DNA of 64,000 nucleotides, taken from contig JACZJN010000162.1 in assembly GCA_014860565.1 (NCBI GenBank), positions 14,739 through 78,738 of the forward strand, read 5' to 3'. Origin of the DNA: Bacteroidota bacterium. Its GTDB lineage: Bacteria > Bacteroidota > Ignavibacteria > SZUA-365. Numbering within the stretch: position 1 is the first letter of the stretch; each line of letters starts with the position of its first letter. The notes below the pieces were generated by a model, which was not told the DNA's origin, did no database searches, and saw only the letters and a list, made by a program, of their open reading frames with translations. This document shows positions 2,755-53,711 of this stretch, piece by piece. The position numbers were made by a program, and so were the translations under genes.

Positions 2755-2790
2755 GGTAAAAAAGAAAAGGTCTGAAAAATCAGACCTTTG
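2755..2790 (-). terminator. Rho-independent terminator directly 3' of tRNA-Ala on the minus strand.
   Basis: On the minus strand a 9-bp stem (AAAGGUCUG/CAGACCUUU) with a 6-nt loop is followed by UUUUCUUUUUUU. Confidence 0.6.
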
Positions 2791-2863
<73 letters not shown>

Positions 2864-2907: not shown

Positions 2908-3546
2908 TCAAAGCATCGGTGTGAAGTAGTCCGTTTTCTCATGCGTGTGAATTGCGATGGCTCCGGCACGGATCAACCGCACAAGAAGCCGTGATGCGCG
3001 CCGGTCGGAAACGTTGATCAATTTGGCGTACTCCTTTACCGTGATGCGGTCGTTTTTCTCAAACCAGGCGAACAGTCGTTTCTCTGCTTCACCGAACACC
3101 AACCGTACCGGTTCGGAAGCGCCGAATTGATGACGCATCACGCGGATCATCTCCCGACTGGCCTGCACGCTGTGTTCGCCGACACGGACATAAGACCTCT
3201 TGTCATCTGTTTCTTCGCGCAGATAATGCGGCTTTCGCTCGCTCTCGGGAATTTCGATGCAGATGACATCGCGGTTGTTCACATTGAAAATGGTGACCGT
3301 GTGCGCGATGGGGGGATCGCAAAGATACTCGGCAGCATACGAGATATCGCCCAGCTCCGCTTTCTCACTGACGACGCCAACAATGGTTTTGTCATCGTCA
3401 ACGCCGAAAATGATGACTCCTCCGCGCGTGTTCGCGAAAGCGATCATTTCCTTCGCGATTTTTTCTCCCGTGGACACGCGCCGTTTGAACTCGGTCGTCA
3501 GACCTTCGCCCTCATCGATTTTATCCATCAGTTGGTGATAGCGCAT
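2908..3546 (-). CDS. Putative transcriptional regulator with an AlbA_2 / Schlafen-like divergent-ATPase N-terminal domain and a C-terminal HTH.
   Basis: Translation from ATG 3546 reads MRYHQLMDKIDEGEGLTTEFKRRVS...GGVIIFGVDD, matching the AlbA_2 pattern (ExxxxEFK...GG.IIxGV.D). The C-terminal segment ITVKEYAKLINVSDRRASRLLVRLIRAGAI resembles a helix-turn-helix. In-frame ATGs further upstream at 3615 and 3660 lack Shine-Dalgarno sequences. Confidence 0.55.
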   Translation of the reverse strand: MRYHQLMDKIDEGEGLTTEFKRRVSTGEKIAKEMIAFANTRGGVIIFGVDDDKTIVGVVSEKAELGDISYAAEYLCDPPIAHTVTIFNVNNRDVICIEIPESERKPHYLREETDDKRSYVRVGEHSVQASREMIRVMRHQFGASEPVRLVFGEAEKRLFAWFEKNDRITVKEYAKLINVSDRRASRLLVRLIRAGAIAIHTHEKTDYFTPML

Positions 3547-3710
3547 GGGTATCGTTTCTTCGTGTATTCTGGAAGTATGAAAAAAAACTTCATGCCGGGC
3601 AATGCCGTTCTTCATCCGGGTCGCAAGGATATGAAGCCGTGGTTTCGTATCATTCCGCATGTCCTCTCAGCCAGATTCGATTGCACCGTTGTTTTGAAAG
3701 GTCCCGACGC

Positions 3711-4679
3711 ATGCCTTTGCTCTGTAATTACTATCTGACCTATCGCTGCAATGCGTACTGTGCATTCTGCCATTTCGGAGATCACGGTGCGTTTCGCGAT
3801 GCGAGGCATGCCCGCACCGAGGATGTGCTCAGGAACATTGCGGACCTGCGTACTCTGGGTGTGCGCTTCGTCGATCTGACCGGAGGGGAACCGCTGCTTC
3901 ATCCGGATATCGCCCGCATCGCTGCGGAAACACGGCGGCTTGGCATGAAGGCGAGCATCACAACCAATGCGCTGCTGTACCCGAAACATGCAGAGGCTCT
4001 GGCAGGGAATGTTGATCTGCTGCACTTTTCTCTCGACAGCGCGGATCCATTGCAGCATAACGCAATGCGTGGCGTGGATTGCTTCGATCACGTGCTCGAA
4101 AGCATTGTCATCGCAAAGGACCTCGGCGAGCGGCCTGATCTGCTCTTTACTGTCACGAATGAGAACGTCGATCAGATGGAGGGGGTGTACGAAATTGCGC
4201 GGCGGTACGGACTGATGTTGCTGTTGAATCCCGTCTTTCGATATTTTCGCGAGGAAGGGCTCAGCGATGAGGCCATAGCACAGACCGAGCGATTCTCCCG
4301 CAAACCCATGGTCTACCTCAATCCATCATTTCTCACACTGCGACGTAAAGGAGGGAACAGCATCGACGATCCCCTCTGCAAGGCAGTTTCCCGCGTGGTC
4401 GTGATTTCACCGGATAACGAAATTCTCCTGCCGTGCTACCACCTGCACTATGAAAAACTGCCCATCGGAGAAAGCCTGAAGCATGCATGGCAATCGGAGC
4501 GTGTCCGCTGGCATCAGAAGCACGAGGGGAGGCACGAATTCTGTGAGGGATGCACCATCAACTGTTATTTCGAACCGTCATTCGCATATCCGACGAATCT
4601 CCTTTCGCTGGCGTCAGTGCCGTCCAAGATCAAATACGGGTATTCGAAATACCTCGTGCAATCTCTCCGGAAACGGTAA
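3711..4679 (+). CDS. Radical SAM enzyme with a C-terminal Cys-rich auxiliary-cluster-like region (SPASM/twitch-like).
   Basis: MPLLCNYYLTYRCNAYCAFCHF contains the CX3CX2C radical-SAM motif. A GGEPLL glycine-rich SAM-binding motif follows. The C-terminus has Cys residues spaced ...PCYHLH...(30)...FCEGCTINCYF. The gene is divergent from the AlbA_2 regulator gene. Confidence 0.8.
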   Translation: MPLLCNYYLTYRCNAYCAFCHFGDHGAFRDARHARTEDVLRNIADLRTLGVRFVDLTGGEPLLHPDIARIAAETRRLGMKASITTNALLYPKHAEALAGNVDLLHFSLDSADPLQHNAMRGVDCFDHVLESIVIAKDLGERPDLLFTVTNENVDQMEGVYEIARRYGLMLLLNPVFRYFREEGLSDEAIAQTERFSRKPMVYLNPSFLTLRRKGGNSIDDPLCKAVSRVVVISPDNEILLPCYHLHYEKLPIGESLKHAWQSERVRWHQKHEGRHEFCEGCTINCYFEPSFAYPTNLLSLASVPSKIKYGYSKYLVQSLRKR

Positions 4680-4712
4680 CTCTCGATGAGATGCGGCTGC
4701 CCGTGCCATGAA

Positions 4713-4778
4713 TGCAGCGGGAACAATCACGCCGCCGCATCGGTCAGCAGCGGGAACAATCACGCCGCCGCGTCCGTC
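4713..4778. repeat. Two tandem 33-bp direct repeats: a perfect 25-bp core GCAGCGGGAACAATCACGCCGCCGC plus an 8-bp tail (ATCGGTCA / GTCCGTCA).
   Basis: Read directly from the sequence: copies at 4713-4745 and 4746-4778, 31/33 identical. They sit in the intergenic region between the radical SAM gene and moxR. Confidence 0.9.
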
Positions 4779-4976
4779 AAATGAGATTGTGCCGCCCGGA
4801 CACCCACCCGTAGCCCGCGAAAAGGATAGGGCGCTTTATTTGGGTTTGCGTGAGATTCCATTCGATGATTATTTTTCCCTGATAGTATTTTTTGCTGGGA
4901 TCTCCGATACGCGCGTATGCGATCCGGAAGCCCGCCCACAGTTTCGATCATCATCATTCGGACCATTGGAGTGCCA

Positions 4977-5966
4977 ATGCAAGTGAATATCCAGGAAATC
5001 AACGAACGCATCCAACAGGAAAGCGCATTTGTCGACGCCCTGAAAATGGAAATCGGTAAAGTCATCATCGGCCAGAAGGGAATGGTCGAACGGCTGCTGA
5101 TCGGCCTGCTCGGCGACGGCCACATTCTGCTCGAAGGCGTGCCGGGTCTGGCGAAGACCACGGCCATCAAAACGCTCGCCGCGTCGATGAAAGCCAGTTT
5201 CCACCGAATCCAGTTTACCCCCGATCTGCTCCCGGCCGATCTTGTGGGAACCATGATCTACAATCAGAAGAACGGCGAGTTCCAGACCAAGCAGGGACCG
5301 GTCTTCGCAAATTTCATCCTTGCCGATGAAATCAACCGTTCCCCCGCGAAAGTACAGAGCGCCCTTCTAGAGGCCATGCAGGAGCGGCAGGTGACGATTG
5401 GAGAACATACGTACCCGCTCCCGAAGCCGTTTCTCGTCATGGCAACGCAGAATCCTATTGAACAGGAAGGAACCTATCCGTTGCCCGAAGCGCAGGTAGA
5501 TCGTTTCATGCTGAAAATCAAAATCGATTACCCTTCGCGGGAAGAGGAGTTGGCCATCATGCGCCAGCAGATCTCGCAGGAAATTCCCGTTCCCAACCCC
5601 GTTGTTTCTGTTGACGATGTTATCCGTGCACGAGACGCCATGCACGCTGTGTATATGGATGAGAAAATCGAACGCTACATTCTTGACATCGTGGAAGCGA
5701 CCCGGCGGCCGCGCGATTTCAAGCTCGACCGCATCAGCAGCTACATCGCATACGGCGGCTCCCCGCGCGCGACCATCAACCTTGCTATCGCGGGAAAGGC
5801 GCATGCTTTCGTCAACCGGCGCGGGTACGTGATTCCTGAAGACATCCGCGCGATCTGTTTCGATGTCCTCCGCCATCGCGTCGCCGTCACCTATGAAGCC
5901 GAGGCAGAGGAAATGAACTCCGAAATGATCGTGCAGGAAATTCTCGACACCATCGAGGTTCCCTGA
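4977..5966 (+). CDS. MoxR-family AAA+ ATPase, first gene of the Bat-type operon.
   Basis: Walker A GVPGLAKT, Walker B ILADEINR, and the MoxR-typical N-terminal segment ...IIGQKGMVERLLIGLLGDGHILLEGVPG. Confidence 0.9.
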   Translation: MQVNIQEINERIQQESAFVDALKMEIGKVIIGQKGMVERLLIGLLGDGHILLEGVPGLAKTTAIKTLAASMKASFHRIQFTPDLLPADLVGTMIYNQKNGEFQTKQGPVFANFILADEINRSPAKVQSALLEAMQERQVTIGEHTYPLPKPFLVMATQNPIEQEGTYPLPEAQVDRFMLKIKIDYPSREEELAIMRQQISQEIPVPNPVVSVDDVIRARDAMHAVYMDEKIERYILDIVEATRRPRDFKLDRISSYIAYGGSPRATINLAIAGKAHAFVNRRGYVIPEDIRAICFDVLRHRVAVTYEAEAEEMNSEMIVQEILDTIEVP

Positions 5967-5968
5967 TC

Positions 5969-6844
5969 TTGGATACGAAACAGATTTTAAAAAATGTCCG
6001 GCAGATCGAGATCCGCACGCGCGGTCTGGTCAACCAGCTCTTCTCGGGTGAATACCATTCCGTCTTCAAGGGACGCGGGATGGAGTTCTCCGAGGTGCGC
6101 GAATACCAGTTCGGTGATGACGTACGCACAATTGACTGGAACGTATCGGCGCGATTCAATCGTCCTTTTGTGAAGGTGTTCGAGGAAGAGCGCGAACTGA
6201 CGGTCATGCTGCTCGTGGACATGAGCGGATCGCAGGATTACGGCACTTCGATCAAGTTCAAACGCGATACCGCGGCTGAACTCTGTGCCGTGCTCGCATT
6301 CAGTGCGATCAAGAACAACGACAAGGTCGGCATGATCATTTTCACCGATCACATCGAGAAGTTCATTCCGCCCAAGAAAGGACGATCCCACATTCTGCGC
6401 ATCATCCGTGACATCATTGCCTTCGAACCCGAGGGCAGTGGTACGGATATACGTGCAGCCCTCGAGTACTTCAACCACGTGACCAAGAAGCGCTCCATCG
6501 CATTTCTCGTTTCTGACTTCATGGACGAGGGGTATGACCGTCCATTGAAGATCGTCGCACGCAAACACGACCTTATTGCTGTCGAATTGTCCGATCCGAG
6601 GGAGAAAAATCTTCCGGATATTGGGTTGGTGAAGTTGCGCGATGCGGAGTCCGGTGCGGAAAAGTGGGTTGATACCTCGCGCTCCGCGGTGCGCGAAGCG
6701 TACCGGCGAAAATGGGAAGAGCGCGGTGCGGATCGCCGACGCCAATTCCTCCTGTCGAACGTCGATAGCATTTCCATCGATGTGCAGCAGGGCTACATCC
6801 AACCACTGGTTGAATTTTTCCGCATGAGGGAGAAACGCTACTGA
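5969..6844 (+). CDS. DUF58 family protein (MoxR partner with a VWA-like fold).
   Basis: A TTG start lies 2 nt after the moxR stop. Motifs GEYHSVFKGRGMEFSEVREYQFGDDVRTIDWNVSAR and LLVDMSGS match DUF58 hallmarks. The TGATG stop/start overlaps the next gene. Confidence 0.85.
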   Translation: MDTKQILKNVRQIEIRTRGLVNQLFSGEYHSVFKGRGMEFSEVREYQFGDDVRTIDWNVSARFNRPFVKVFEEERELTVMLLVDMSGSQDYGTSIKFKRDTAAELCAVLAFSAIKNNDKVGMIIFTDHIEKFIPPKKGRSHILRIIRDIIAFEPEGSGTDIRAALEYFNHVTKKRSIAFLVSDFMDEGYDRPLKIVARKHDLIAVELSDPREKNLPDIGLVKLRDAESGAEKWVDTSRSAVREAYRRKWEERGADRRRQFLLSNVDSISIDVQQGYIQPLVEFFRMREKRY

Positions 6845-7890
6845 TGAAACGCATTTTCTGGGCCATTCTGTTTTTCACAACTCTCCATTATGGCGGACAG
6901 GCACAGGACGTCAAGGTGTCGGCGACCGTGGATTCTCTCCGATATCAGATTGGAGATTGGATCACACTTCATCTCACCGTGGATGCACCTTCGACCTACA
7001 CCGTGCGCCTTCCGGCGACTGACGATGATTTCGAGGGCGGCGATTTCATTTCTGCCGGGAAAGCGGAAATGGAGACACACGGCAAGCGCAAGGAATATCG
7101 ACAGGATGTCGTCACGACCATTTTCGATACCGGAAGCATCGCACTTCGTGTACGTGTGCAATACACCATGCCTGGTGATACGGCGTCGTTCATATCTTTC
7201 AGTCCCCGGATCAATTTCGAGATCAGTACCGTCGCATTGGACACGGCGCAGAGCTTCAAGGACATCAAAGAAGTCATGCATGTTCCCTTGACCCTGTGGG
7301 ATTATCTGCTTTACGCAGCCGTCGTGCTGATGCTTGTCCTCGTTGGCTGGTTTGGGTATCGCTGGTATCAGAAGCGTAAGAACAGGCCGGAAGAAATACT
7401 CGAGGAAGCGGAACCGGAGATCCCGGCGTACGTGGTCGCTTTGGATGCGCTTCAGACGCTGCGCGAGCGCAAGCTCTGGCAAAGCGGCCAGCATAAGGCC
7501 TACCAGTCGCAGGTAACCGATATCCTCCGCGCGTACATCGAACGACGCTTCCGTCTCCCGGCAATGGAACAGACCACGTCTGAAATCATTCCCAGACTCG
7601 CGATGCTCGGGCTCTCCCCGCACCTCGTCGAACAAGTGGAGCAGGTCTTGCACACCGCGGATTTCACGAAATTCGCCAAGTACATACCGTCATCGATGCA
7701 GCATGAAGACTCCATGACGGTTTCGGTCCAGTTTGTAGAAAGCACCAAACCCATCGCGGATGCTGCGAACGCTCCGGCTGCCGGCCCTGCTACTCTACAG
7801 GCGGCTTCCACGCACGTTGCCACTGTGGACGAAACGGGCTCCGATCTCACTGATGCTCATGGTAGTGAAGGAGGGACACGCGATGTTTGA
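6844..7890 (+). CDS. Membrane protein with a signal peptide and a single central TM helix; third gene of Bat operons (DUF4381-like).
   Basis: MKRIFWAILFFTTLHYGGQAQ is a signal peptide. The central TM LWDYLLYAAVVLMLVLVGWFGYRWYQKRK is followed by a charged stretch. The gene's end overlaps the batA start by 8 nt. Confidence 0.55.
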   Translation: MKRIFWAILFFTTLHYGGQAQDVKVSATVDSLRYQIGDWITLHLTVDAPSTYTVRLPATDDDFEGGDFISAGKAEMETHGKRKEYRQDVVTTIFDTGSIALRVRVQYTMPGDTASFISFSPRINFEISTVALDTAQSFKDIKEVMHVPLTLWDYLLYAAVVLMLVLVGWFGYRWYQKRKNRPEEILEEAEPEIPAYVVALDALQTLRERKLWQSGQHKAYQSQVTDILRAYIERRFRLPAMEQTTSEIIPRLAMLGLSPHLVEQVEQVLHTADFTKFAKYIPSSMQHEDSMTVSVQFVESTKPIADAANAPAAGPATLQAASTHVATVDETGSDLTDAHGSEGGTRDV

Positions 7891-8881
7891 GCATATCACC
7901 CAATTCGCAAATCCTGCGTTGCTCTGGCTGTTGCTTCTGATTCCGATACTCGTCGCCTGGCATATCTGGAAACAGGGTCGACTTACTTCCGCGTTGCGCC
8001 ATTCATCCCTCGCATTGTTTTCAGGCCTGCCGTCGAGCTGGCGCGTGCGGCTTCGCTTCATTCCCTTTGCTCTGCGTATGCTTGCCCTGGCGCTGCTAAT
8101 TGTCGCATTCGCCCGACCGCAGTCCTCCGCACGCGGAGAAAAGGTGTATCGCGAGGGTATCGATATCACTATCGTGCTTGATATCTCGGGTTCGATGCTC
8201 GCCGAGGATTTTCGACCCAACCGGCTCGAAGCGGCCAAGGATGTGGGGGAGGATTTCATCCGCGCACGAATAAACGATCGCATCGGACTTGTGATCTTCT
8301 CCGGTGAGAGTTTTACTCAGTGTCCCTTGACTACCGATTACAGTGTGCTTATCGATCTGCTGAAAAAGGTGGAAACCGGATATCTGCAAGACGGAACCGC
8401 GATCGGGGAAGGCATCGCAAACGCGGTCAACCGTATGAAGGACAGCAAATCGAAGAGCAAGGTGATGATCCTTCTCACCGACGGCGTGAATAACATGGGT
8501 TCGATCGATCCGGCGACGGCAGCAGAAATTGCGCGCACCTTCGGCATCCGCATCTACACCATCGGTGTGGGAACGCGTGGAATGGCGCCGTATCCCTTTA
8601 AAACGGCGTACGGCATTCAATATCAACCTGTACCTGTCGAGATCGACGAAGACATGCTCCGTCAGGTGGCGCAGATCACTGGTGGAGAGTATTTCCGTGC
8701 AACGGGCAACAAAAAGCTCCAACAGATTTACGAGGATATAGACAAGCTGGAGCGGACCAAAATAGAAGTCACGGAATTCCATCGCTATACGGAATTGTTC
8801 TATGATTACCTTCTGGCAGCGATGGCGGTGCTTCTGTTCGAACTCGCGCTTTCTTTGTTTGTCTTCCGAAAGATTCCCTGA
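7883..8881 (+). CDS. batA: BatA-type von Willebrand factor A domain membrane protein.
   Basis: An RBS GGAGGG precedes the ATG. There are two N-terminal TM helices. The VWA MIDAS-type motifs DITIVLDISGSM and ILLTDGVNN are present, with a C-terminal TM. Confidence 0.85.
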   Translation: MFEHITQFANPALLWLLLLIPILVAWHIWKQGRLTSALRHSSLALFSGLPSSWRVRLRFIPFALRMLALALLIVAFARPQSSARGEKVYREGIDITIVLDISGSMLAEDFRPNRLEAAKDVGEDFIRARINDRIGLVIFSGESFTQCPLTTDYSVLIDLLKKVETGYLQDGTAIGEGIANAVNRMKDSKSKSKVMILLTDGVNNMGSIDPATAAEIARTFGIRIYTIGVGTRGMAPYPFKTAYGIQYQPVPVEIDEDMLRQVAQITGGEYFRATGNKKLQQIYEDIDKLERTKIEVTEFHRYTELFYDYLLAAMAVLLFELALSLFVFRKIP

Positions 8882-8905
8882 TTCACGCAGAGGCATACGC
8901 CAGCA

Positions 8906-9958
8906 ATGATTAAATTCGCACATCCGGAATATTTCATCTACATGTTGATCCTGCCTGCCATTGCAGCGGCATTGTGGTTCACCTGGTATCTGAAAAATCG
9001 CAGCATTCGCAGCTATGGCGATCAGCGCAGCGTGCTTTCACTCGTGGACAGGCGCAGCCGTGTTAAGTTTTGGCTTCGCGGAGGGATCGTGCTCCTTGCC
9101 TTTGCCGCGCTCGTCACCGCATATGCCAATCCGCTGATCGGAACCAAGTTCGAGGAAGTCACTCGCAGCGGTATCGATCTCATTGTGGCTATCGACGTCT
9201 CTGCCAGTATGCGTGCAGAAGATATTCAACCGAACCGCATCAGCGCTGCCCGCAAGGAGCTTCAGAATCTGATCAACAACCTCAAGGGTGATCGCATCGG
9301 CATTATCGTTTTTTCGGGTGATGCCTATACGCAACTGCCCCTGACGTCTGATTACAGCGCGGCACTGATGCTGACCGACGTCATAGATGCGGGCATGGCC
9401 CCGACGCCCGGTACCGCAATCGGGTCCGCCATCGAATTGGCACGAGAATCCTTTCGCAAGGAGGAAGGGAAGTACAAGGCGATGGTCATCATCACCGATG
9501 GTGAAAATCATGAGGACGACCCCGTCGCAGCTGCGGCGGAGGCTGCCAATGAGGGCATCGTCATTCATACGATCGGGATGGGATCGCTCGAAGGTGCGCC
9601 GATTCCGCTTTCCGCAAGAGGGGGAGAGCAGGGGTATAAAAAGGATAATGACGGTTCGATGCTGCTTTCCCGTCTTGATGCAGAAACGTTGAAGAAAGTC
9701 GCTGCCACCACCGGAGGCACATTCACCCAGGCGCTCAGTGGGAGAGACAACCTCGCAACCGTCTTCGATCAGATCGAGCGCATGGAAAAAAAGGAATTTG
9801 GCACGAAGCAATTCACCGATTATGAAGACCGCTTTCAGTATCTGGTTCTTTTGGGTCTGATTCTCCTGATATCCGAACTTTTCCTATCGGAAACACGCAA
9901 TCGCTTCCTGGCGCGTTTTTCGATCTTTTCGCCCAACGACGAACGGAGGAGATCCTGA
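8906..9958 (+). CDS. batB: BatB-type von Willebrand factor A domain membrane protein.
   Basis: N-terminal TMs. VWA motifs DLIVAIDVSASM and VIITDGENH are present, with a C-terminal TM (YLVLLGLILLISELFL). Confidence 0.85.
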   Translation: MIKFAHPEYFIYMLILPAIAAALWFTWYLKNRSIRSYGDQRSVLSLVDRRSRVKFWLRGGIVLLAFAALVTAYANPLIGTKFEEVTRSGIDLIVAIDVSASMRAEDIQPNRISAARKELQNLINNLKGDRIGIIVFSGDAYTQLPLTSDYSAALMLTDVIDAGMAPTPGTAIGSAIELARESFRKEEGKYKAMVIITDGENHEDDPVAAAAEAANEGIVIHTIGMGSLEGAPIPLSARGGEQGYKKDNDGSMLLSRLDAETLKKVAATTGGTFTQALSGRDNLATVFDQIERMEKKEFGTKQFTDYEDRFQYLVLLGLILLISELFLSETRNRFLARFSIFSPNDERRRS

Positions 9959-9959
9959 C

Positions 9960-10811
9960 ATGAAGCTGCGCAAGATGGTAATCACCGTTGCGTTATCCAT
10001 TCTCGCCGCTGGCGCGCATGCACAGTCGTATCGCAGTACCGTCAACGACGGGAACGATTTGTACCACAATAAGCAGTACGATCGAGCGCGAGAGAAATAC
10101 GAACAGGCAGCCATCGAGGAGCCGGAGCGTCCTGAAAGCTTTTTCAATGCCGGCAATGCCGCGTATCGCAATAACGATATCAAGGCCGCGCTGGATAAAT
10201 ATGAGAAGGCGGGGCTCCGCGTCAAGGACAAACAGACACTTGCACGTACGTTATACAATGCCGGAAATACCTTTCTGAACGCCGCGGAAAAAGGCGAAGA
10301 GAATCCCGCCCTGAAACAGGCGGCCGGGGAAGAGGCGGGGAATCTGCAGATGGAGGGCTACAAACAGGCGATCGAGATGTACAAGAAAGCCCTGAAACTC
10401 GATCCCAACGATCAGGATGCGAGGTATAATCTGACCTACGCTCGGAAGAAACTCGAGGATCTGCAGAAGCAGCAGCAAAACCAGAACAAGGATCAGAACA
10501 AGGATAAGAAGGATCAGAAGCAGGATAAACAGAAGGATCAGAAGAATCAGGACAAGAACAAGCAGGAAGAGCAGCAGAAGAAGGACAAGCAGGATCAGGA
10601 AAAGCAAAAGCAACAGAACCAGAAGGACAACGAACAAAAGGATAAGGCAAAGCAGGATCAGCAGCAGCAGCCCCAGCCGCAGAAGGAACAAAACATGTCG
10701 AAGCAGCAGGCCGAACAAATCCTGCGTGCACTTCAGAGAGATGAAAAAGAATTGCAGAAGAAGAAAAGGCAGCAGCAGGGACGCCGTATCAATGTCGAAA
10801 AAGACTGGTGA
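9960..10811 (+). CDS. batC: BatC-type TPR-repeat protein with a K/D/Q-rich low-complexity C-terminal region.
   Basis: Signal peptide, then TPR-like repeats (YNAGNAAYRNNDIKAALDKYEKA; YNAGNTFLNAA). The gene sits between the batB- and batD-type genes. Confidence 0.75.
   Translation: MKLRKMVITVALSILAAGAHAQSYRSTVNDGNDLYHNKQYDRAREKYEQAAIEEPERPESFFNAGNAAYRNNDIKAALDKYEKAGLRVKDKQTLARTLYNAGNTFLNAAEKGEENPALKQAAGEEAGNLQMEGYKQAIEMYKKALKLDPNDQDARYNLTYARKKLEDLQKQQQNQNKDQNKDKKDQKQDKQKDQKNQDKNKQEEQQKKDKQDQEKQKQQNQKDNEQKDKAKQDQQQQPQPQKEQNMSKQQAEQILRALQRDEKELQKKKRQQQGRRINVEKDW
10468..10700. repeat. Low-complexity purine-rich coding repeat (imperfect AAGGATCAGAA-like units) encoding the KDQ-rich tail of BatC.
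   Basis: Direct reading shows repeated cagaacaaggatcagaacaaggataagaaggatcagaagcaggataaacagaaggatcagaag... Confidence 0.8.
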
Positions 10812-10817
10812 CACAAC

Positions 10818-12659
10818 ATGATCCGGCGCACACTTCTATCGATTGTTATCGTCGCATTGTCGCTGCAGGTCCTGCACGCGCAGGAAACTCAGTTTTTCTG
10901 TAGTGTTGACCGCACCGAGGTGCCCGTCGGTCAGCAGTTTCAGGTAACCTATACGCTTTCTGGCGGGAGTTTGAGGCAATACAGCAATTTTCGGGCTCCC
11001 GATCTCAACCGGAATTTCATGACGCTCGCCGGCCCGTCGTCCTCACAGCAGATGCAGATTATCAACGGACGGGTTTCCGCGAGTATCTCATGGATTTACG
11101 TACTTCAGCCCCGCAATACGGGAACCTTCACCGTCCCTGCCGCGACGATCACCTACGACGGAAAATCCATGACGTCCAATACGGTGAGTATCAAGGTGAC
11201 ACGCGCGGTCCCGAATGCAGGGGGCGCGAATCAGCAGAAGCAGCAGGACAATACACCAGATGTGGATCTTGGCGATAACCTCTTTATTCGCGCGATTCCG
11301 AATCGGACGTCTGTCTATCTGGGTGAACCACTCACCGTCACCTATAAGCTTTATTCAAGGGTCGCATTTCAGCTCGATAATCCGATTAAACTTCCACGCA
11401 TGGTGGGATTCTGGTCGGAAGACATAGAAGCTCCCACGCAGTTGCAGCCTCGTGTCGAAGTCTATAACGGCCGTCAATATGAAACGTACATGCTTCGGAA
11501 AGTCCTCTATTTCCCCACGCAGTCAGGAAAGCTTACGATCGAGCCCTTTGAAATCGGCACAACGGTACGGGTACGGAAGCAGCGAAAAACAGGAAACGAT
11601 GCATTTGATCGCTTCTTCAGCGATCCACTGTTTGACAGCTATGATCATGTGAAAAAAAATCTCCTCACCCAGAAGGTGAACGTCACCGTGCGACCGCTTC
11701 CTGAAGACGGTCAGCCAAAGGGATTCTCCGGGGTAGTCGGTTCGTATGAGATGCGAGCGACGCTGGATCGCAACGCGATGAAAGCCAATGAAACCGCCAC
11801 TCTCAAAGTTGTCTTAACGGGGAAGGGCAATATTCGCCTTCTGGATGAACCGGTGATCACATTCCCGTCGGGCGTCGACCATTACGATCCGACCATCGAT
11901 GAGGACGCCAAGCCCCTTGACGGAACGCTTTCCGGCAGCAAGACATTCGAATACCTCCTTGTCCCTCGATACGCGGGGAAGGTCACCATACCGCCGGTTG
12001 TTTTCTCGTTTTTCGATCTCGACCTGAAGAAATATGTGACGCTTGAATCCCAGGCCTTTACTCTCGATATCGCCGAGGGAGACGTGCGTAAGAACGCAGG
12101 CGATCTCACTCAGAAATATGTCGATTACCTGTCCATGGATGTACGGGGAATACGTGAAGGCACCCCTCGTTTCGATAAAAACGTCTCGCACGGCATTCGG
12201 CCATTAATCATGTTGCTCTGCTATCTCATACCGGTAGTGCTGTTATTTGCCGCGCTCATGTGGAAGCAGCGATTCGACCGTTTGCATACCGATGTCGCCG
12301 GCATGAAGCGGCGGAAGGCGACGCGTGTTGCCGAACGTCGTTTGAGCGAATCGAAGAAGCATCTCGAGGCGGGGAACATCGATGCCTATTACCTGGAAAT
12401 CGCACGCGCGCTCTGGGGATATGTGCAGGACAAGCTTGATATTCCGACGTCCGAGACCGCAATCGATACCGTAATAGTACGTCTTCGAAATAGGAATGTG
12501 GATGAACTCGTCGCGGACAGGATGCGCAACGCCCTCGAAGCGGTTGAGTATGCACGGTTTTCACCGTCGAGGGCCAGTACCGACGAAATGCGCGCGTTGT
12601 ATGACCAGGCAAAAGAAGCCATTATCCAAACGGAGCAGGCGATGAGGTCCGTCGTATGA
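10818..12659 (+). CDS. batD: BatD-type protein (large secreted protein with a C-terminal TM anchor).
   Basis: 613 aa with a signal peptide and a TM near the C-terminus (LIMLLCYLIPVVLLFAALMW). It occupies the batD position, and its ATGA stop/start overlaps batE. Confidence 0.8.
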   Translation: MIRRTLLSIVIVALSLQVLHAQETQFFCSVDRTEVPVGQQFQVTYTLSGGSLRQYSNFRAPDLNRNFMTLAGPSSSQQMQIINGRVSASISWIYVLQPRNTGTFTVPAATITYDGKSMTSNTVSIKVTRAVPNAGGANQQKQQDNTPDVDLGDNLFIRAIPNRTSVYLGEPLTVTYKLYSRVAFQLDNPIKLPRMVGFWSEDIEAPTQLQPRVEVYNGRQYETYMLRKVLYFPTQSGKLTIEPFEIGTTVRVRKQRKTGNDAFDRFFSDPLFDSYDHVKKNLLTQKVNVTVRPLPEDGQPKGFSGVVGSYEMRATLDRNAMKANETATLKVVLTGKGNIRLLDEPVITFPSGVDHYDPTIDEDAKPLDGTLSGSKTFEYLLVPRYAGKVTIPPVVFSFFDLDLKKYVTLESQAFTLDIAEGDVRKNAGDLTQKYVDYLSMDVRGIREGTPRFDKNVSHGIRPLIMLLCYLIPVVLLFAALMWKQRFDRLHTDVAGMKRRKATRVAERRLSESKKHLEAGNIDAYYLEIARALWGYVQDKLDIPTSETAIDTVIVRLRNRNVDELVADRMRNALEAVEYARFSPSRASTDEMRALYDQAKEAIIQTEQAMRSVV

Positions 12660-51089: not shown

Positions 51090-51191
51090 TCCAAAACTCA
51101 CACATCTCGGGATGTGGCTCTCTTGCACGCAGGAGGGCATTTTCGTAGTTTCCGTAAACCTGCATTCCTTGTCCATCAAATCAAGAATACT

Positions 51192-53711
51192 ATGAAAGCT
51201 GTCATCATGGCAGGCGGATTCGGCACTCGGTTACGTCCGCTCACCTGCAACATTCCCAAACCCATGGTACCGATGGTAAACCGGCCCATGATGCTCCACA
51301 TTGTGGACCTGTTGAAGAAACACGGATTCTCCGACATCATCTCCCTGCTCTTCTACCATCCGAACGTGATCAGAAATTTCTTTGGTGAAGGGAAAGAGTT
51401 CGGCATCAACATGCATTACACCCATGCGGAAGCCGATTTCGGAACGGCTGGAAGTGTACGCAATGCCTCCGACAAGATAGGAAAGGACCGCGTCCTCATT
51501 ATAAGTGGTGACGTGCTTACTGATTTTGATCTGGGCGAAGCCATCCGTTTCCATGAAGAAAAGGGCGCGGACGCCACGATCGTACTTACGCGTGTGCCAA
51601 ACCCACTGCAATTTGGCGTGGTGATCGTTGATGACGAGGGAAACATCACTCGGTTTCTCGAGAAGCCCTCTTGGGGCGAGGTGTTCAGTGACACGATCAA
51701 CACAGGGATTTACATTTTAGAAAACAGCGTTCTCGAGATGATTCCCTACAAGGAGGATTACGACTTCAGCAAGAACCTCTTTCCGCTCATGATGCAGGAA
51801 GGGAAGAAGCTGTGCGGCTACATCTCGGAAGGGTACTGGAGAGACGTGGGGAACCTTGGGGAGTATCACGAAGCCAGCATGGATTGCCTGACCGGAGCTG
51901 TCGACGTTGTGATCGACGGGACAAAGGAGGGCGAAGTGTACGTCGGTGAGGGGAGCACCGTTCCTGTCGAACGGCCGCATTGGAGCGGACGCGTCGTGAT
52001 TGGACGCAATGCGCGCGTTGCAGACTCGGCAAAGCTAATAAACAGCGTCATCGGCGATAATGTGACGATTCATGACGGTGCCGTGATCTTGAATTCCGTG
52101 ATCTGGGATGGCTGCACGCTCGAGCAATCGGTGCAGATTTCAAATTCCGTCGTTGGTTTCGATTCGATCCTGCACGCTGGAGCAACAGTAGCGGATAATG
52201 TTTTCATCAGTGATCGATGCAGTATCGGCAAGGATGCCTCTCTGCTTTCCAATATCAAGCTGTGGCCCGAGAAGGTGGTGCAGGAGGGAGCGGTACTGAC
52301 CAAGTCTCTTGTCTGGGAGGACAAATGGCTTCGCGAGCTGTTCGCTGACGCCCGTATCACGGGGACTTCGAACATTGAGATCAATCCGGAATTCGGGGCC
52401 AAGCTGGGAGCCTGCCTGGGCGCAGTGCTTGGGGTAGGCAGCCAGGTGCTGGCCTCTCGTGATCCTGATAATGCCTCGCGCATGATCAAGCGTGCGATAG
52501 CCTGTGGACTGATGTCTTCAGGTGTTAACGTGCATGATATGCAGACGACAGCCATCCCCATGCTCCGGCAGGTCTTGCGTAGCGGCAAGTATATGGCCGG
52601 CTTTCATGTCCGTAAATCCCCATTTGACAAGCGGTCGATGGATATTATCTTCTTCGATGCTGACGGGCAGGATCTTTCGAGCAAGCGGACCAAGGCGATC
52701 GAACGCCAGTTTTTCTCCGAAGATTTCCAGCGCGCCGATTATGATACAATCGGGTCGTTGTACTTCCCGGAGCGTACGACGGAAGCTTACCGCGAACGCT
52801 TCCTTTCAACACTGAACCATGAGCTTGTTTCAAGCAAATCGTTCAACATCGTCATTGATTATTCCTACGGCATCGCTTCGTCGATTTTCCCGAATATTCT
52901 CGGGAAGCTCGGAGCAGAAGTAATTTCACTCAACGCATACATCGACCGGACGCGGCTGACCCGCTCTCGAGAAGAATTTTCTGCCGCGTGCCAACACGTA
53001 TCCGGCATCGTGCGTTCACTGAGCAACGTGCTCGGGATTCTTCTCGATGCAGGGGCGGAGAAAGTTTTTCTCGCAGATGAGACCGGAAACTTCCTCGATG
53101 AGGATCGAGTGGCAACTGTCATCACCAAGCTCTTCCTCGAAGCACGCCGGCTGCAAGAGCACCCCGTCAGGAAAATGGCCTGTCCTATCGTGGCCTCCGC
53201 CGAGATGGATGTACTGGCCGAGGAGTATGGCGTTACGCTGGTGCGAACACCGAACACTCACGGGGGCATGATGAATGCCGTCCTCGCTGATCCGGAGCTG
53301 GATTTCGTTGCAGGAACAAGAGGCGGTTTCATTTTCCCGGAATTCCTCTTTGCTACCGATGCCATGTACAGTGTGGCAAAGATTCTGGAAATGATGGCAA
53401 TCACAGGGTGGCGCATCGGCGAAGTCGACCGCAGCTTGCTGCGCCTCTGCCGCGCATCGCGCACGATCAACTGTCCATGGCAGGCCAAGGGGCGTGTCAT
53501 GCGCTTCGCGATGAATGCCTCCGAGCAACACGAGCGTCAGCTGATCGACGGGATCAAGATTCTGTTCGCCCGCCATACATGGGTTCTCCTCGTCCCCAGC
53601 AAAGAGCACGAGGTTTTCATGGTTTATACCGAGGCGACCACACAGGAAGAAGCCGATCGATTGGCATCCGAGTATGAGGAAAAAGTTGTTCAATGGCGCG
53701 ATAATGCGTAA
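51192..53711 (+). CDS. Bifunctional sugar-1-phosphate nucleotidyltransferase (mannose-1-P guanylyltransferase-like, with a left-handed β-helix) fused to a phosphomannomutase/phosphoglucomutase domain.
   Basis: The N-terminus MKAVIMAGGFGTRLRPLT is the NTP-transferase G-loop. The middle shows hexapeptide repeats. The C-terminal half has the α-D-phosphohexomutase fold, but the canonical phosphoserine loop is not clearly seen. Confidence 0.75.
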   Translation: MKAVIMAGGFGTRLRPLTCNIPKPMVPMVNRPMMLHIVDLLKKHGFSDIISLLFYHPNVIRNFFGEGKEFGINMHYTHAEADFGTAGSVRNASDKIGKDRVLIISGDVLTDFDLGEAIRFHEEKGADATIVLTRVPNPLQFGVVIVDDEGNITRFLEKPSWGEVFSDTINTGIYILENSVLEMIPYKEDYDFSKNLFPLMMQEGKKLCGYISEGYWRDVGNLGEYHEASMDCLTGAVDVVIDGTKEGEVYVGEGSTVPVERPHWSGRVVIGRNARVADSAKLINSVIGDNVTIHDGAVILNSVIWDGCTLEQSVQISNSVVGFDSILHAGATVADNVFISDRCSIGKDASLLSNIKLWPEKVVQEGAVLTKSLVWEDKWLRELFADARITGTSNIEINPEFGAKLGACLGAVLGVGSQVLASRDPDNASRMIKRAIACGLMSSGVNVHDMQTTAIPMLRQVLRSGKYMAGFHVRKSPFDKRSMDIIFFDADGQDLSSKRTKAIERQFFSEDFQRADYDTIGSLYFPERTTEAYRERFLSTLNHELVSSKSFNIVIDYSYGIASSIFPNILGKLGAEVISLNAYIDRTRLTRSREEFSAACQHVSGIVRSLSNVLGILLDAGAEKVFLADETGNFLDEDRVATVITKLFLEARRLQEHPVRKMACPIVASAEMDVLAEEYGVTLVRTPNTHGGMMNAVLADPELDFVAGTRGGFIFPEFLFATDAMYSVAKILEMMAITGWRIGEVDRSLLRLCRASRTINCPWQAKGRVMRFAMNASEQHERQLIDGIKILFARHTWVLLVPSKEHEVFMVYTEATTQEEADRLASEYEEKVVQWRDNA

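Follow-up and report, generated by a model that had tools for sequence, protein, structure and literature searches.

We examined a 64,000-nucleotide stretch of the genome of a Bacteroidota bacterium (Ignavibacteria, SZUA-365; contig JACZJN010000162.1), hereafter the window, in which a gene for a radical S-adenosylmethionine (rSAM) enzyme lies head to head with a gene for a Schlafen-type AlbA_2 protein. An initial annotation made from the sequence had raised the possibility that the rSAM protein is a defence enzyme similar to viperin and that the AlbA_2 protein regulates it, and this framing is not supported by the present analysis. The rSAM gene is an ordinary chromosomal core gene of a large uncharacterised family present in Ignavibacteria and other lineages of the Fibrobacteres–Chlorobi–Bacteroidetes (FCB) group, and the deep genomic partner of this family is an HpnI/GT21-like membrane glycosyltransferase, not AlbA_2. 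The locus comprises the following features:

2908–3546, minus strand: gene for an AlbA_2 (Schlafen-type) protein with a C-terminal winged helix, 212 aa (Pfam SLFN_AlbA_2, E = 1.3e-24)
3547–3710: divergent intergenic region, 164 bp between the AlbA_2 and rSAM starts
3711–4679, plus strand: gene for an rSAM enzyme, predicted to be of the Twitch type, 322 aa, from an uncharacterised FCB-group family

The rSAM open reading frame (ORF) is as initially described: it opens with MPLLCNYYLTYRCNAYCAFCHF...GGEPLL, closes with the Cys-rich stretch ...PCYHL...FCEGCTINCYF and is readily recognised by the Pfam Radical_SAM profile (PF04055; E = 3e-26, 92.9 bits vs a cutoff of 29.5). The presence of the CX3CX2C and GGE-type motifs, together with the partial TIM barrel of the AlphaFold model (pLDDT 81.8, pTM 0.85), places the protein in the radical SAM superfamily. 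Translation starts at the ATG at 3711 rather than at an upstream GTG at 3639: all 25 aligned homologues begin with MP[LI]LCNYY, and the conservation of the DNA among orthologous loci sets in exactly at this codon, with a conserved GAAAGG ahead of it. Two protein alignments, one of the close family (A1) and one of 38 relatives with identity down to 27% (A2), together with the model, delineate the functional motifs:

3747–3770, plus strand: CX3CX2C motif (C13, C17, C20), predicted to bind the SAM-cleaving [4Fe-4S] cluster; invariant in A1, at least 90% conserved in A2
3882–3899, plus strand: GGEPLL SAM-binding motif, residues 58–63, from alignments A1 and A2
4377–4565, plus strand: Twitch-like auxiliary-cluster module, C223-X18-C242 and C278-X2-C281-X3-C285, from the alignments and the model

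In the GGEPLL motif, residues G58 to L62 are invariant in A1; in A2, G58 is invariant and G59 to L62 are at least 90% conserved. The residues that define the family across the 38 relatives are those of CX3CX2C, GGEP and a GGN motif (215–216), together with C223, C242, C278 and C281. Of these four cysteines, three (C223, C278 and C281) are without exception in relatives of 27–48% identity, and the fourth, C242, is at least 90% conserved. C285 never varies within the close family, and most, though not all, of the A2 sequences carry it; for C5 and C124, invariance is limited to the close family. The C-terminal portion of the protein had been described as SPASM/twitch-like, and the Twitch half of this description stands. 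In the model, two strands (residues 229–232 and 237–240) form a beta-hairpin between C223 and C242, and this Cys pair is followed by a downstream CX2C, the arrangement typical of Twitch domains. The SPASM half does not stand: instead of the seven-Cys motif (CX9-15GX4C...CX2CX5CX3C...C, two auxiliary clusters), the protein has five C-terminal Cys in the order CX18C...CX2CX3C. The Pfam SPASM score, 19.4 bits, is slightly below the cutoff of 21.5, and the sub-threshold SPASM and DUF3463 matches span residues 223–292. This Cys pattern is that of Twitch domains in which a single auxiliary [4Fe-4S] cluster has all its ligands supplied by Cys.

The family is large. In a database clustered at 90% identity, 3131 clusters match the rSAM protein, and none of the best 120 of the 3131 falls below 54% identity to it. 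The family is present in at least 531 GTDB species (one genome scanned per species), almost all of them Ignavibacteria, Melioribacteraceae and Bacteroidota or 'Chlorobi' metagenome-assembled genomes, with Ignavibacterium album included. Among 1.84 billion representatives, only 87 clusters at 50% identity match better than 1e-30; the named members of these come from Catalimonadaceae, Fibrobacterota and Candidatus Mcinerneyibacterium, and all are annotated plainly as 'radical SAM protein'. Longer relatives (460–1100 aa) exist, without an informative fused domain.

No curated NCBIfam cutoff is reached by the rSAM protein, and the characterised cofactor families are not approached; the enzyme has no firm place among them, in line with the initial annotation. 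The best NCBIfam match is TIGR03961, the archaeal, uncharacterised PTO1314 family, which aligns over the full length with 92.6 bits vs a cutoff of 306. Intermediate, candidate archaeal-like relatives reach this profile at 115–159 bits only, also below the cutoff, and no mention of the PTO1314 family was found in the literature. MoaA (TIGR02666 and TIGR02668) scores 72–77 bits vs cutoffs of 284–325, over the N-terminal half only; ScmF scores 77 bits, BlsE (TIGR04466) 60.4 bits vs a cutoff of 400, and HpnH 47.6 bits, with a weak match to DUF3463, the HpnH C-terminal domain (E = 7e-4). HpnJ is absent among the best 25 of the 64 NCBIfam families matched, and the Pfam search of the rSAM protein shows no B12-binding domain. 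For viperins, the viperin_w_prok profile (NF038283) reaches 65 bits vs a cutoff of 180, aligning only its positions 3–123 of 281, and the PADLOC pVip models reach 60–67 bits, confined to residues 2–119, that is, to the shared rSAM core. The nucleotide-binding C-terminal half of viperins has no match in the protein.

Comparisons with solved structures point in the same direction. When a profile of the family is run against the sequences in the Protein Data Bank (PDB), BlsE comes first (1.6e-21), followed by MoaA (7e-13), viperins (about 1e-11 to 4e-8) and anSME (4e-8). In the Foldseek comparison of the model, BlsE is again the closest (E = 1e-12, TM 0.68, 317 columns), followed by anSME, SkfB, MoaA, PqqE and SuiB; BtrN, MoaA, SkfB and SpeY are all among the structural matches. 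Viperins, to which the initial annotation had likened the Cys motif, enter the ranking at rank 14 only and are not the closest neighbours. Nor is the N-terminal block nearer to viperin than to MoaA, as had been proposed: the respective scores are 65–67 and 77 bits, both over the shared core only. The viperin resemblance is therefore the one common to this whole branch of the radical SAM superfamily.

We then compared gene neighbourhoods across 173 loci, each with a relative of the rSAM gene. The search for distant loci was seeded with a small alignment, A3, instead of the 38-sequence A2; in the GC-rich clade, where simple ORF calling yields spurious antisense ORFs, the neighbour calls rest on tblastn. 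In Ignavibacteria proper (59 loci), the gene is part of a same-strand cluster, Polysacc_deac_1–GT2–rSAM–DUF1207–Peptidase_M50. In every one of these 59 loci, the GT2 glycosyltransferase is encoded upstream of rSAM in the same orientation, with a median tblastn gap of 3 nt, and in I. album the two reading frames overlap. Polysacc_deac_1, a NodB-type deacetylase, is found in all 54 evaluable loci, and DUF1207, a protein with a signal peptide, lies downstream in 53 of 56; 13–15 loci contain, further upstream, an additional GT2 and an LPG_synthase_TM 'flippase-like' protein. Among more distant relatives (40–57% identity), a GT2 or GT21 gene immediately precedes the rSAM gene on the same strand in 10 of 13 evaluable clusters at 55% identity, and a Fibrobacterota locus has the order LPG_synthase_TM–GT21–GT21–rSAM (L091, 2876–8132). 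The adjacent glycosyltransferases are multi-pass membrane proteins (Pfam Glyco_transf_21) that align end to end with HpnI at 55–98 bits, under the cutoff of 310; their other principal match is PgaC. No small ORF is conserved beside the rSAM gene in the window or in the related loci, in agreement with the early impression that no precursor peptide lies nearby.

Several of these loci have further peculiarities. In the Fibrobacterota locus, the rSAM gene is directly followed by a gene of the dehydroquinate (DHQ) synthase family (367 aa), which may simply be aroB; DHQ-synthase-family sugar-phosphate cyclases make carbocycles, which renders the adjacency noteworthy. A metagenomic locus (L086, 162–9659; also L087 and L088) has the order Wzi-like–GT21–GT21–rSAM2–DUF3108–GT21–rSAM–547-aa protein, in which rSAM2 is a second, distinct rSAM/SPASM protein of 356 aa. 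The 547-aa protein has no Pfam match; in 12 loci, it is encoded downstream of rSAM.

The neighbour in the window was correctly recognised as an AlbA_2 protein with a helix-turn-helix (HTH) C-terminus. Orthologue lengths and orthologous DNA place its start at the ATG at 3546, which gives 212 aa, vs a 250-aa ORF reaching 3660; the orthologues in Ignavibacteria, down to about 50% identity, have 212–220 aa. The last approximately 50 residues are winged-helix-like, with a weak PCI match in the window protein and HTH_24 recorded for several orthologues. The functional rSAM/AlbA_2 pair that had been postulated is not borne out by the comparison of loci. AlbA_2 adjoins the rSAM gene in 23 of the 173, all in one sublineage in which both flanks are also syntenic. 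Throughout that sublineage (26 loci, 60–82% rSAM identity), there is a conserved block in which an outer-membrane protein gene, cdd, a tRNA gene in some cases and AlbA_2 face rSAM–MoxR–DUF58. The direct divergent order, with a gap of 136–255 bp, is found only where rSAM identity is at least 68%. At 66–67% identity, a beta-lactamase gene separates the two genes, and at 60–65% identity, they are separated by a gene for a monofunctional peptidoglycan transglycosylase (Transgly) on the AlbA_2 strand. On the AlbA_2 side of the window, this block continues with the following feature and, beyond it, a cytidine deaminase gene and an outer-membrane beta-barrel gene:

2790–2863, minus strand: tRNA-Ala(GGC), immediately downstream of AlbA_2 (ARAGORN; Rfam tRNA, 59.6 bits)

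In the 59 loci of Ignavibacteria proper (54–60% rSAM identity), AlbA_2 is missing from the rSAM locus. Its orthologue (50–53% identity) sits in a RelA/SpoT–RuvX–Transgly–AlbA_2 cluster, where the AlbA_2 start codon overlaps the Transgly stop codon (L174, 5264–6711; L176, 5327–6648). The same coupling is seen in deep members of the window's clade (L019–L027, upstream of the rSAM gene). This clustering argues that the conserved, ancestral partner of AlbA_2 is the transglycosylase gene, not the rSAM gene. In the window, Transgly is gone from the position between AlbA_2 and rSAM, and no homologue was found anywhere in the 64 kb. The juxtaposition of AlbA_2 and rSAM in the window is secondary, a product of rearrangement followed by Transgly loss, and the AlbA_2 protein is a lineage-wide orthologue rather than a dedicated rSAM regulator. 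As a separate observation, the coupling with Transgly suggests a cell-wall-related role for this small protein. The initial annotation had named two findings that, together, would speak against its proposal, namely, absence of the regulator from orthologous loci and profile matches that assign the rSAM protein firmly to a known family of cofactor biosynthesis; the former was found, the latter was not. The defence flavour that it gave to the locus is also missing: the window is chromosomal housekeeping, with genes for methionyl-tRNA synthetase (MetRS), GMP synthase and YceG/MltG and a Bat operon.

The divergent intergenic region had been estimated at 165 bp, essentially the length found, and credited with CTTCAT-containing repeats that could serve as an operator. 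The copies exist, CTTCATGCCGGG (3588–3599), CTTCATCCGGG (3610–3620) and, inverted, ATGAAGCCG (3631–3639), and are short. They do not exceed chance: with one mismatch allowed, the window contains 6 occurrences of the 11-mer vs 3.1 expected, a count reached in 7 of 100 shuffles, and the repeat search of the window did not report them. None of the three copies is conserved in the 13 orthologous intergenic regions of a 14-region alignment. We accordingly rejected these repeats as an operator. The same alignment reveals four blocks that are conserved:

3574–3587: conserved block AGTATGAAAAAAAA
3598–3610: conserved block GGCAATGCCGTTC
3642–3654: conserved block GTTTCGTATCATT
3696–3701: GAAAGG, a ribosome-binding-like site

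From their conservation, we infer that these blocks are candidates for two promoters and a ribosome-binding site; a sigma-70 consensus scan found no match in the region. Across the sublineage, no other non-coding element upstream of rSAM is as well conserved as GTTTCGTATCAT (3642–3654 and orthologous loci). About 12 nt upstream of it lies GGAA(A/T)T, in an arrangement that loosely resembles promoters of extracytoplasmic function (ECF) sigma factors (GGAAC...CGT), with a spacer that seems too short. The Rfam scan of the window found only tRNA, and no riboswitch or leader.

We consider it probable, with moderate confidence, that the rSAM enzyme is involved in sugar tailoring in a glycosyltransferase-linked pathway of the cell envelope. 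The enzyme would abstract a hydrogen atom from an N-acetylglucosamine (GlcNAc)- or glucosamine (GlcN)-type sugar attached by the HpnI/GT21-like glycosyltransferase to a membrane lipid or, less likely, to an envelope glycan. The sugar radical would then be converted, via auxiliary-cluster oxidation or rearrangement, to yield a modified head group. The logic would be that of HpnI–HpnK–HpnJ and of calditol synthase, but with a seemingly non-homologous rSAM enzyme and deacetylase and in a host without hopanoids. In the window's sublineage, the rSAM gene would have been parted from the glycosyltransferase cluster and brought by chance rearrangement to its place between the AlbA_2/HTH gene and the MoxR–Bat operon.

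A number of observations weigh against sugar tailoring of a lipid. The 64-kb window contains no homologue of the glycosyltransferase, the deacetylase or DUF1207, and the 26 loci of the window's sublineage likewise have none of the three within 6–8 kb of the gene; LPG_synthase_TM homologues were not found in the window either. Some other subfamilies have unrelated neighbours, for instance AccD, or endonuclease III with a gamma-carbonic-anhydrase-like protein. The glycosyltransferase of I. album is also PgaC-like (104 bits), which means that a polymer could take the place of the lipid as acceptor. The assignment of the substrate rests on gene order and on the nearest solved fold at 21–24% identity, and the literature search returned no family member with a described function and none that had been studied experimentally. 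Searches of the literature for an rSAM enzyme with a glycosyltransferase in Ignavibacteria, and for BlsE and Twitch, yielded nothing. Finally, an auxiliary cluster with a full set of Cys ligands, as predicted here, speaks for redox chemistry and not for a redox-neutral ring contraction like those of HpnJ and calditol synthase. Because such a cluster suggests removal of an electron from the substrate radical, oxidation (dehydrogenation or oxidative decarboxylation, as with BtrN or BlsE) would be at least as likely as redox-neutral ring contraction, and formation of a carbocycle specifically is, in our estimate, a minority outcome.

The enzyme might belong to the same glycosyltransferase-linked pathway and act instead on the hydrophobic part of the lipid, forming or modifying a C–C bond in the manner of HpnH, Tes/GDGT-MAS (GDGT, glycerol dialkyl glycerol tetraether) or further rSAM enzymes of lipids, a variant that we deem unlikely. 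The weak DUF3463 and HpnH matches are compatible with it, as are the longer relatives of 460–690 aa with unassigned C-terminal extensions, but the likeness to HpnH and Tes is no greater than that of any rSAM enzyme of the clade, the nearest match in both sequence and structure is a sugar-acting enzyme, and the deacetylase partner implies chemistry that requires a free amino sugar.

Modification of an exported GlcNAc oligo- or polysaccharide, similar to poly-N-acetylglucosamine (PNAG) or chito-oligosaccharide, is doubtful to a similar degree. Such a pathway would comprise a processive PgaC/NodC-like synthase, a NodB/PgdA-like deacetylase and DUF1207 as an outer-membrane component, and three features of the Ignavibacteria cluster fit it: PgaC/IcaA is the best NCBIfam match of the I. 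album glycosyltransferase, the deacetylase matches PdaB, PgdA and NodB at 95–110 bits (all these scores are sub-cutoff), and DUF1207 carries a signal peptide. However, in other subfamilies, the adjacent glycosyltransferase matches HpnI best and over its full length, and the deacetylase is missing. Furthermore, a cytoplasmic, oxygen-sensitive rSAM enzyme is better suited to a lipid-linked intermediate or one at the cytoplasmic face than to a polymer that is exported.

It is still less probable that the enzyme is a housekeeping rSAM protein of cofactor or metabolite synthesis, unconnected with the glycosyltransferase, with the gene order reflecting inherited synteny. The gene does stand apart from the glycosyltransferase in the window's lineage and in several others, it is conserved as highly as genes of core metabolism (55–82% identity across the class), and it shows a generic likeness to MoaA, NirJ and AhbD. 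Against this, the curated cofactor families are not approached, the best MoaA score being 77 bits vs a cutoff of 325. Inertia alone hardly explains the adjacency either, since 10 of 13 subfamilies show it, with overlapping or nearly abutting frames, although they are no more than 40–55% identical to one another and belong to different phyla (among them Ignavibacteria and Fibrobacterota).

A SPASM/Twitch maturase of a ribosomally synthesised and post-translationally modified peptide (RiPP), acting on a small precursor, is very improbable given the lack of a conserved small ORF beside the gene in the 173 loci, of recognition element domain, peptidase or transporter partners, and of the seven-Cys SPASM motif (there are five Cys only), as well as the consistent partnership with a glycosyltransferase. 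Least probable of all is a prokaryotic viperin-like enzyme that would convert CTP, UTP or GTP to a chain-terminating ddhNTP (a 3'-deoxy-3',4'-didehydro nucleotide) under an AlbA_2 defence or stress regulator: the N-terminal NYYLTYRCNAYCAFCHF...GGEPLL block does look viperin-like and draws the pVip and viperin_w_prok matches, but these cover the shared core only, far under the curated cutoff, and are outscored by the MoaA, ScmF and PTO1314 profiles; the C-terminal half is a Cys-rich Twitch module missing from viperins, at least 531 species carry the gene as a vertically conserved part of their core, in housekeeping surroundings, and most orthologous loci lack AlbA_2. The profile and structure results effectively refute the viperin reading.

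Beyond the rSAM gene, at 4917–12659 on the same strand, lies a complete Bat-type (Bacteroides aerotolerance) operon that consists of genes for a MoxR AAA+ ATPase, a DUF58 protein, an unassigned 348-aa protein, two BatA/VWA proteins, a tetratricopeptide repeat (TPR) protein with a long K/Q/D-rich low-complexity tail (9960–10811) and BatD. Synteny between the MoxR–Bat operon and the rSAM gene is confined to the window's sublineage. The spacer of approximately 300 bp between the rSAM stop codon and MoxR, which shrinks to as little as 78 bp in related loci, contains a perfect-core 33-bp tandem duplication (4714–4779; GCAGCGGGAACAATCACGCCGCCGC plus 8 nt; two copies, 94% identical). This duplication yields a spurious 92-aa ORF (4708–4986), overlaps minus-strand terminator-like hairpins and was found neither elsewhere in the window nor in the 173 related loci checked. 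Long antisense ORFs, for example one of 203 aa opposite AlbA_2 (3127–3738, plus strand) and one of 159 aa antisense to the 5' end of rSAM, are unconserved as proteins and typical of this GC-rich genome. At 51114–53711, a gene encodes an 865-aa fusion of an NDP-sugar pyrophosphorylase (NTP_transferase and LbH) with a phosphoglucomutase/phosphomannomutase; this sugar-nucleotide supply protein is the only carbohydrate-activation gene product noticed in the window.

A large, uniformly unannotated rSAM family linked to HpnI-like glycosyltransferases and NodB-type deacetylases appears to be a moderately interesting and testable lead, and the deacetylase–GT2–rSAM set is a concrete three-gene cassette open to expression and assay. 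If sugar tailoring is the correct reading, the family marks a new way in which glycolipids or glycans of the envelope are modified in an environmental phylum of wide distribution. A small, tractable Twitch enzyme would then join the very few rSAM enzymes with a role in lipid head-group remodelling, for which, to our knowledge, no mechanistic characterisation exists. More speculative, and in itself unlikely, is the proposal that Ignavibacteria and many other FCB bacteria make an undescribed envelope glycolipid, the amino-sugar head group of which is remodelled by this enzyme, for instance by oxidation or by contraction to a carbocyclic cyclitol. If true, this would be the third independently evolved chemistry of the HpnJ/calditol synthase kind and the first on a non-hopanoid bacterial lipid.

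Among known systems, viperins and pVips share with this family the core rSAM motifs of the first approximately 120 residues and differ in context, which is defence for viperins and not for the family analysed here. The closest parallel in gene content is hopanoid tailoring. HpnJ is an rSAM enzyme with a B12-binding domain, and HpnK is a YdjC-type deacetylase. In that pathway, HpnI transfers GlcNAc, HpnK deacetylates it, and HpnJ contracts the ring to a cyclitol ether (PMC13459092). The logic of the HpnI–HpnK–HpnJ(–HpnL) gene set recurs here in the combination of an HpnI/GT21-like glycosyltransferase, a sugar N-deacetylase, an rSAM enzyme and, in some loci, LPG_synthase_TM, a membrane protein of the kind to which HpnL belongs. 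The components differ: the rSAM protein is a small Twitch enzyme, the deacetylase is of the NodB type (Polysacc_deac_1), and the glycosyltransferases score far below the HpnI cutoff. The acceptor lipid must also differ from a hopanoid because squalene-hopene cyclase is essentially absent from Bacteroidota. Membership in HpnJ was rejected given the lack of a B12-binding domain and the near-absence of squalene-hopene cyclase from the host phylum, which leaves an analogy. Another analogy, by proposed role only, is with calditol synthase Cds (Saci_1489) of Sulfolobus acidocaldarius, an rSAM enzyme that has been proposed to remodel a lipid-bound hexose head group after glycosyl transfer (PMC13459092); both are stand-alone rSAM enzymes, and Cds is archaeal and acts on GDGT.

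The closest solved relative is BlsE (PDB 7VOB; TIGR04466), the cytosylglucuronate decarboxylase of blasticidin S synthesis, which acts on a pyranose. The identity is 21–24%, alignment at the sequence level does not extend beyond the N-terminal 165 residues, and the gene contexts differ, an antibiotic cluster for BlsE and an envelope glycosyltransferase cluster for the rSAM family. In the C-terminal module, the family resembles BtrN, MoaA, SkfB and SpeY, members of the Twitch subclass with one auxiliary [4Fe-4S] cluster, which have the same C-X18-C...C-X2-C spacing around a beta-hairpin; in BtrN, the auxiliary cysteines are C169, C188, C232 and C235. Both BtrN and SpeY are sugar or aminocyclitol dehydrogenases.

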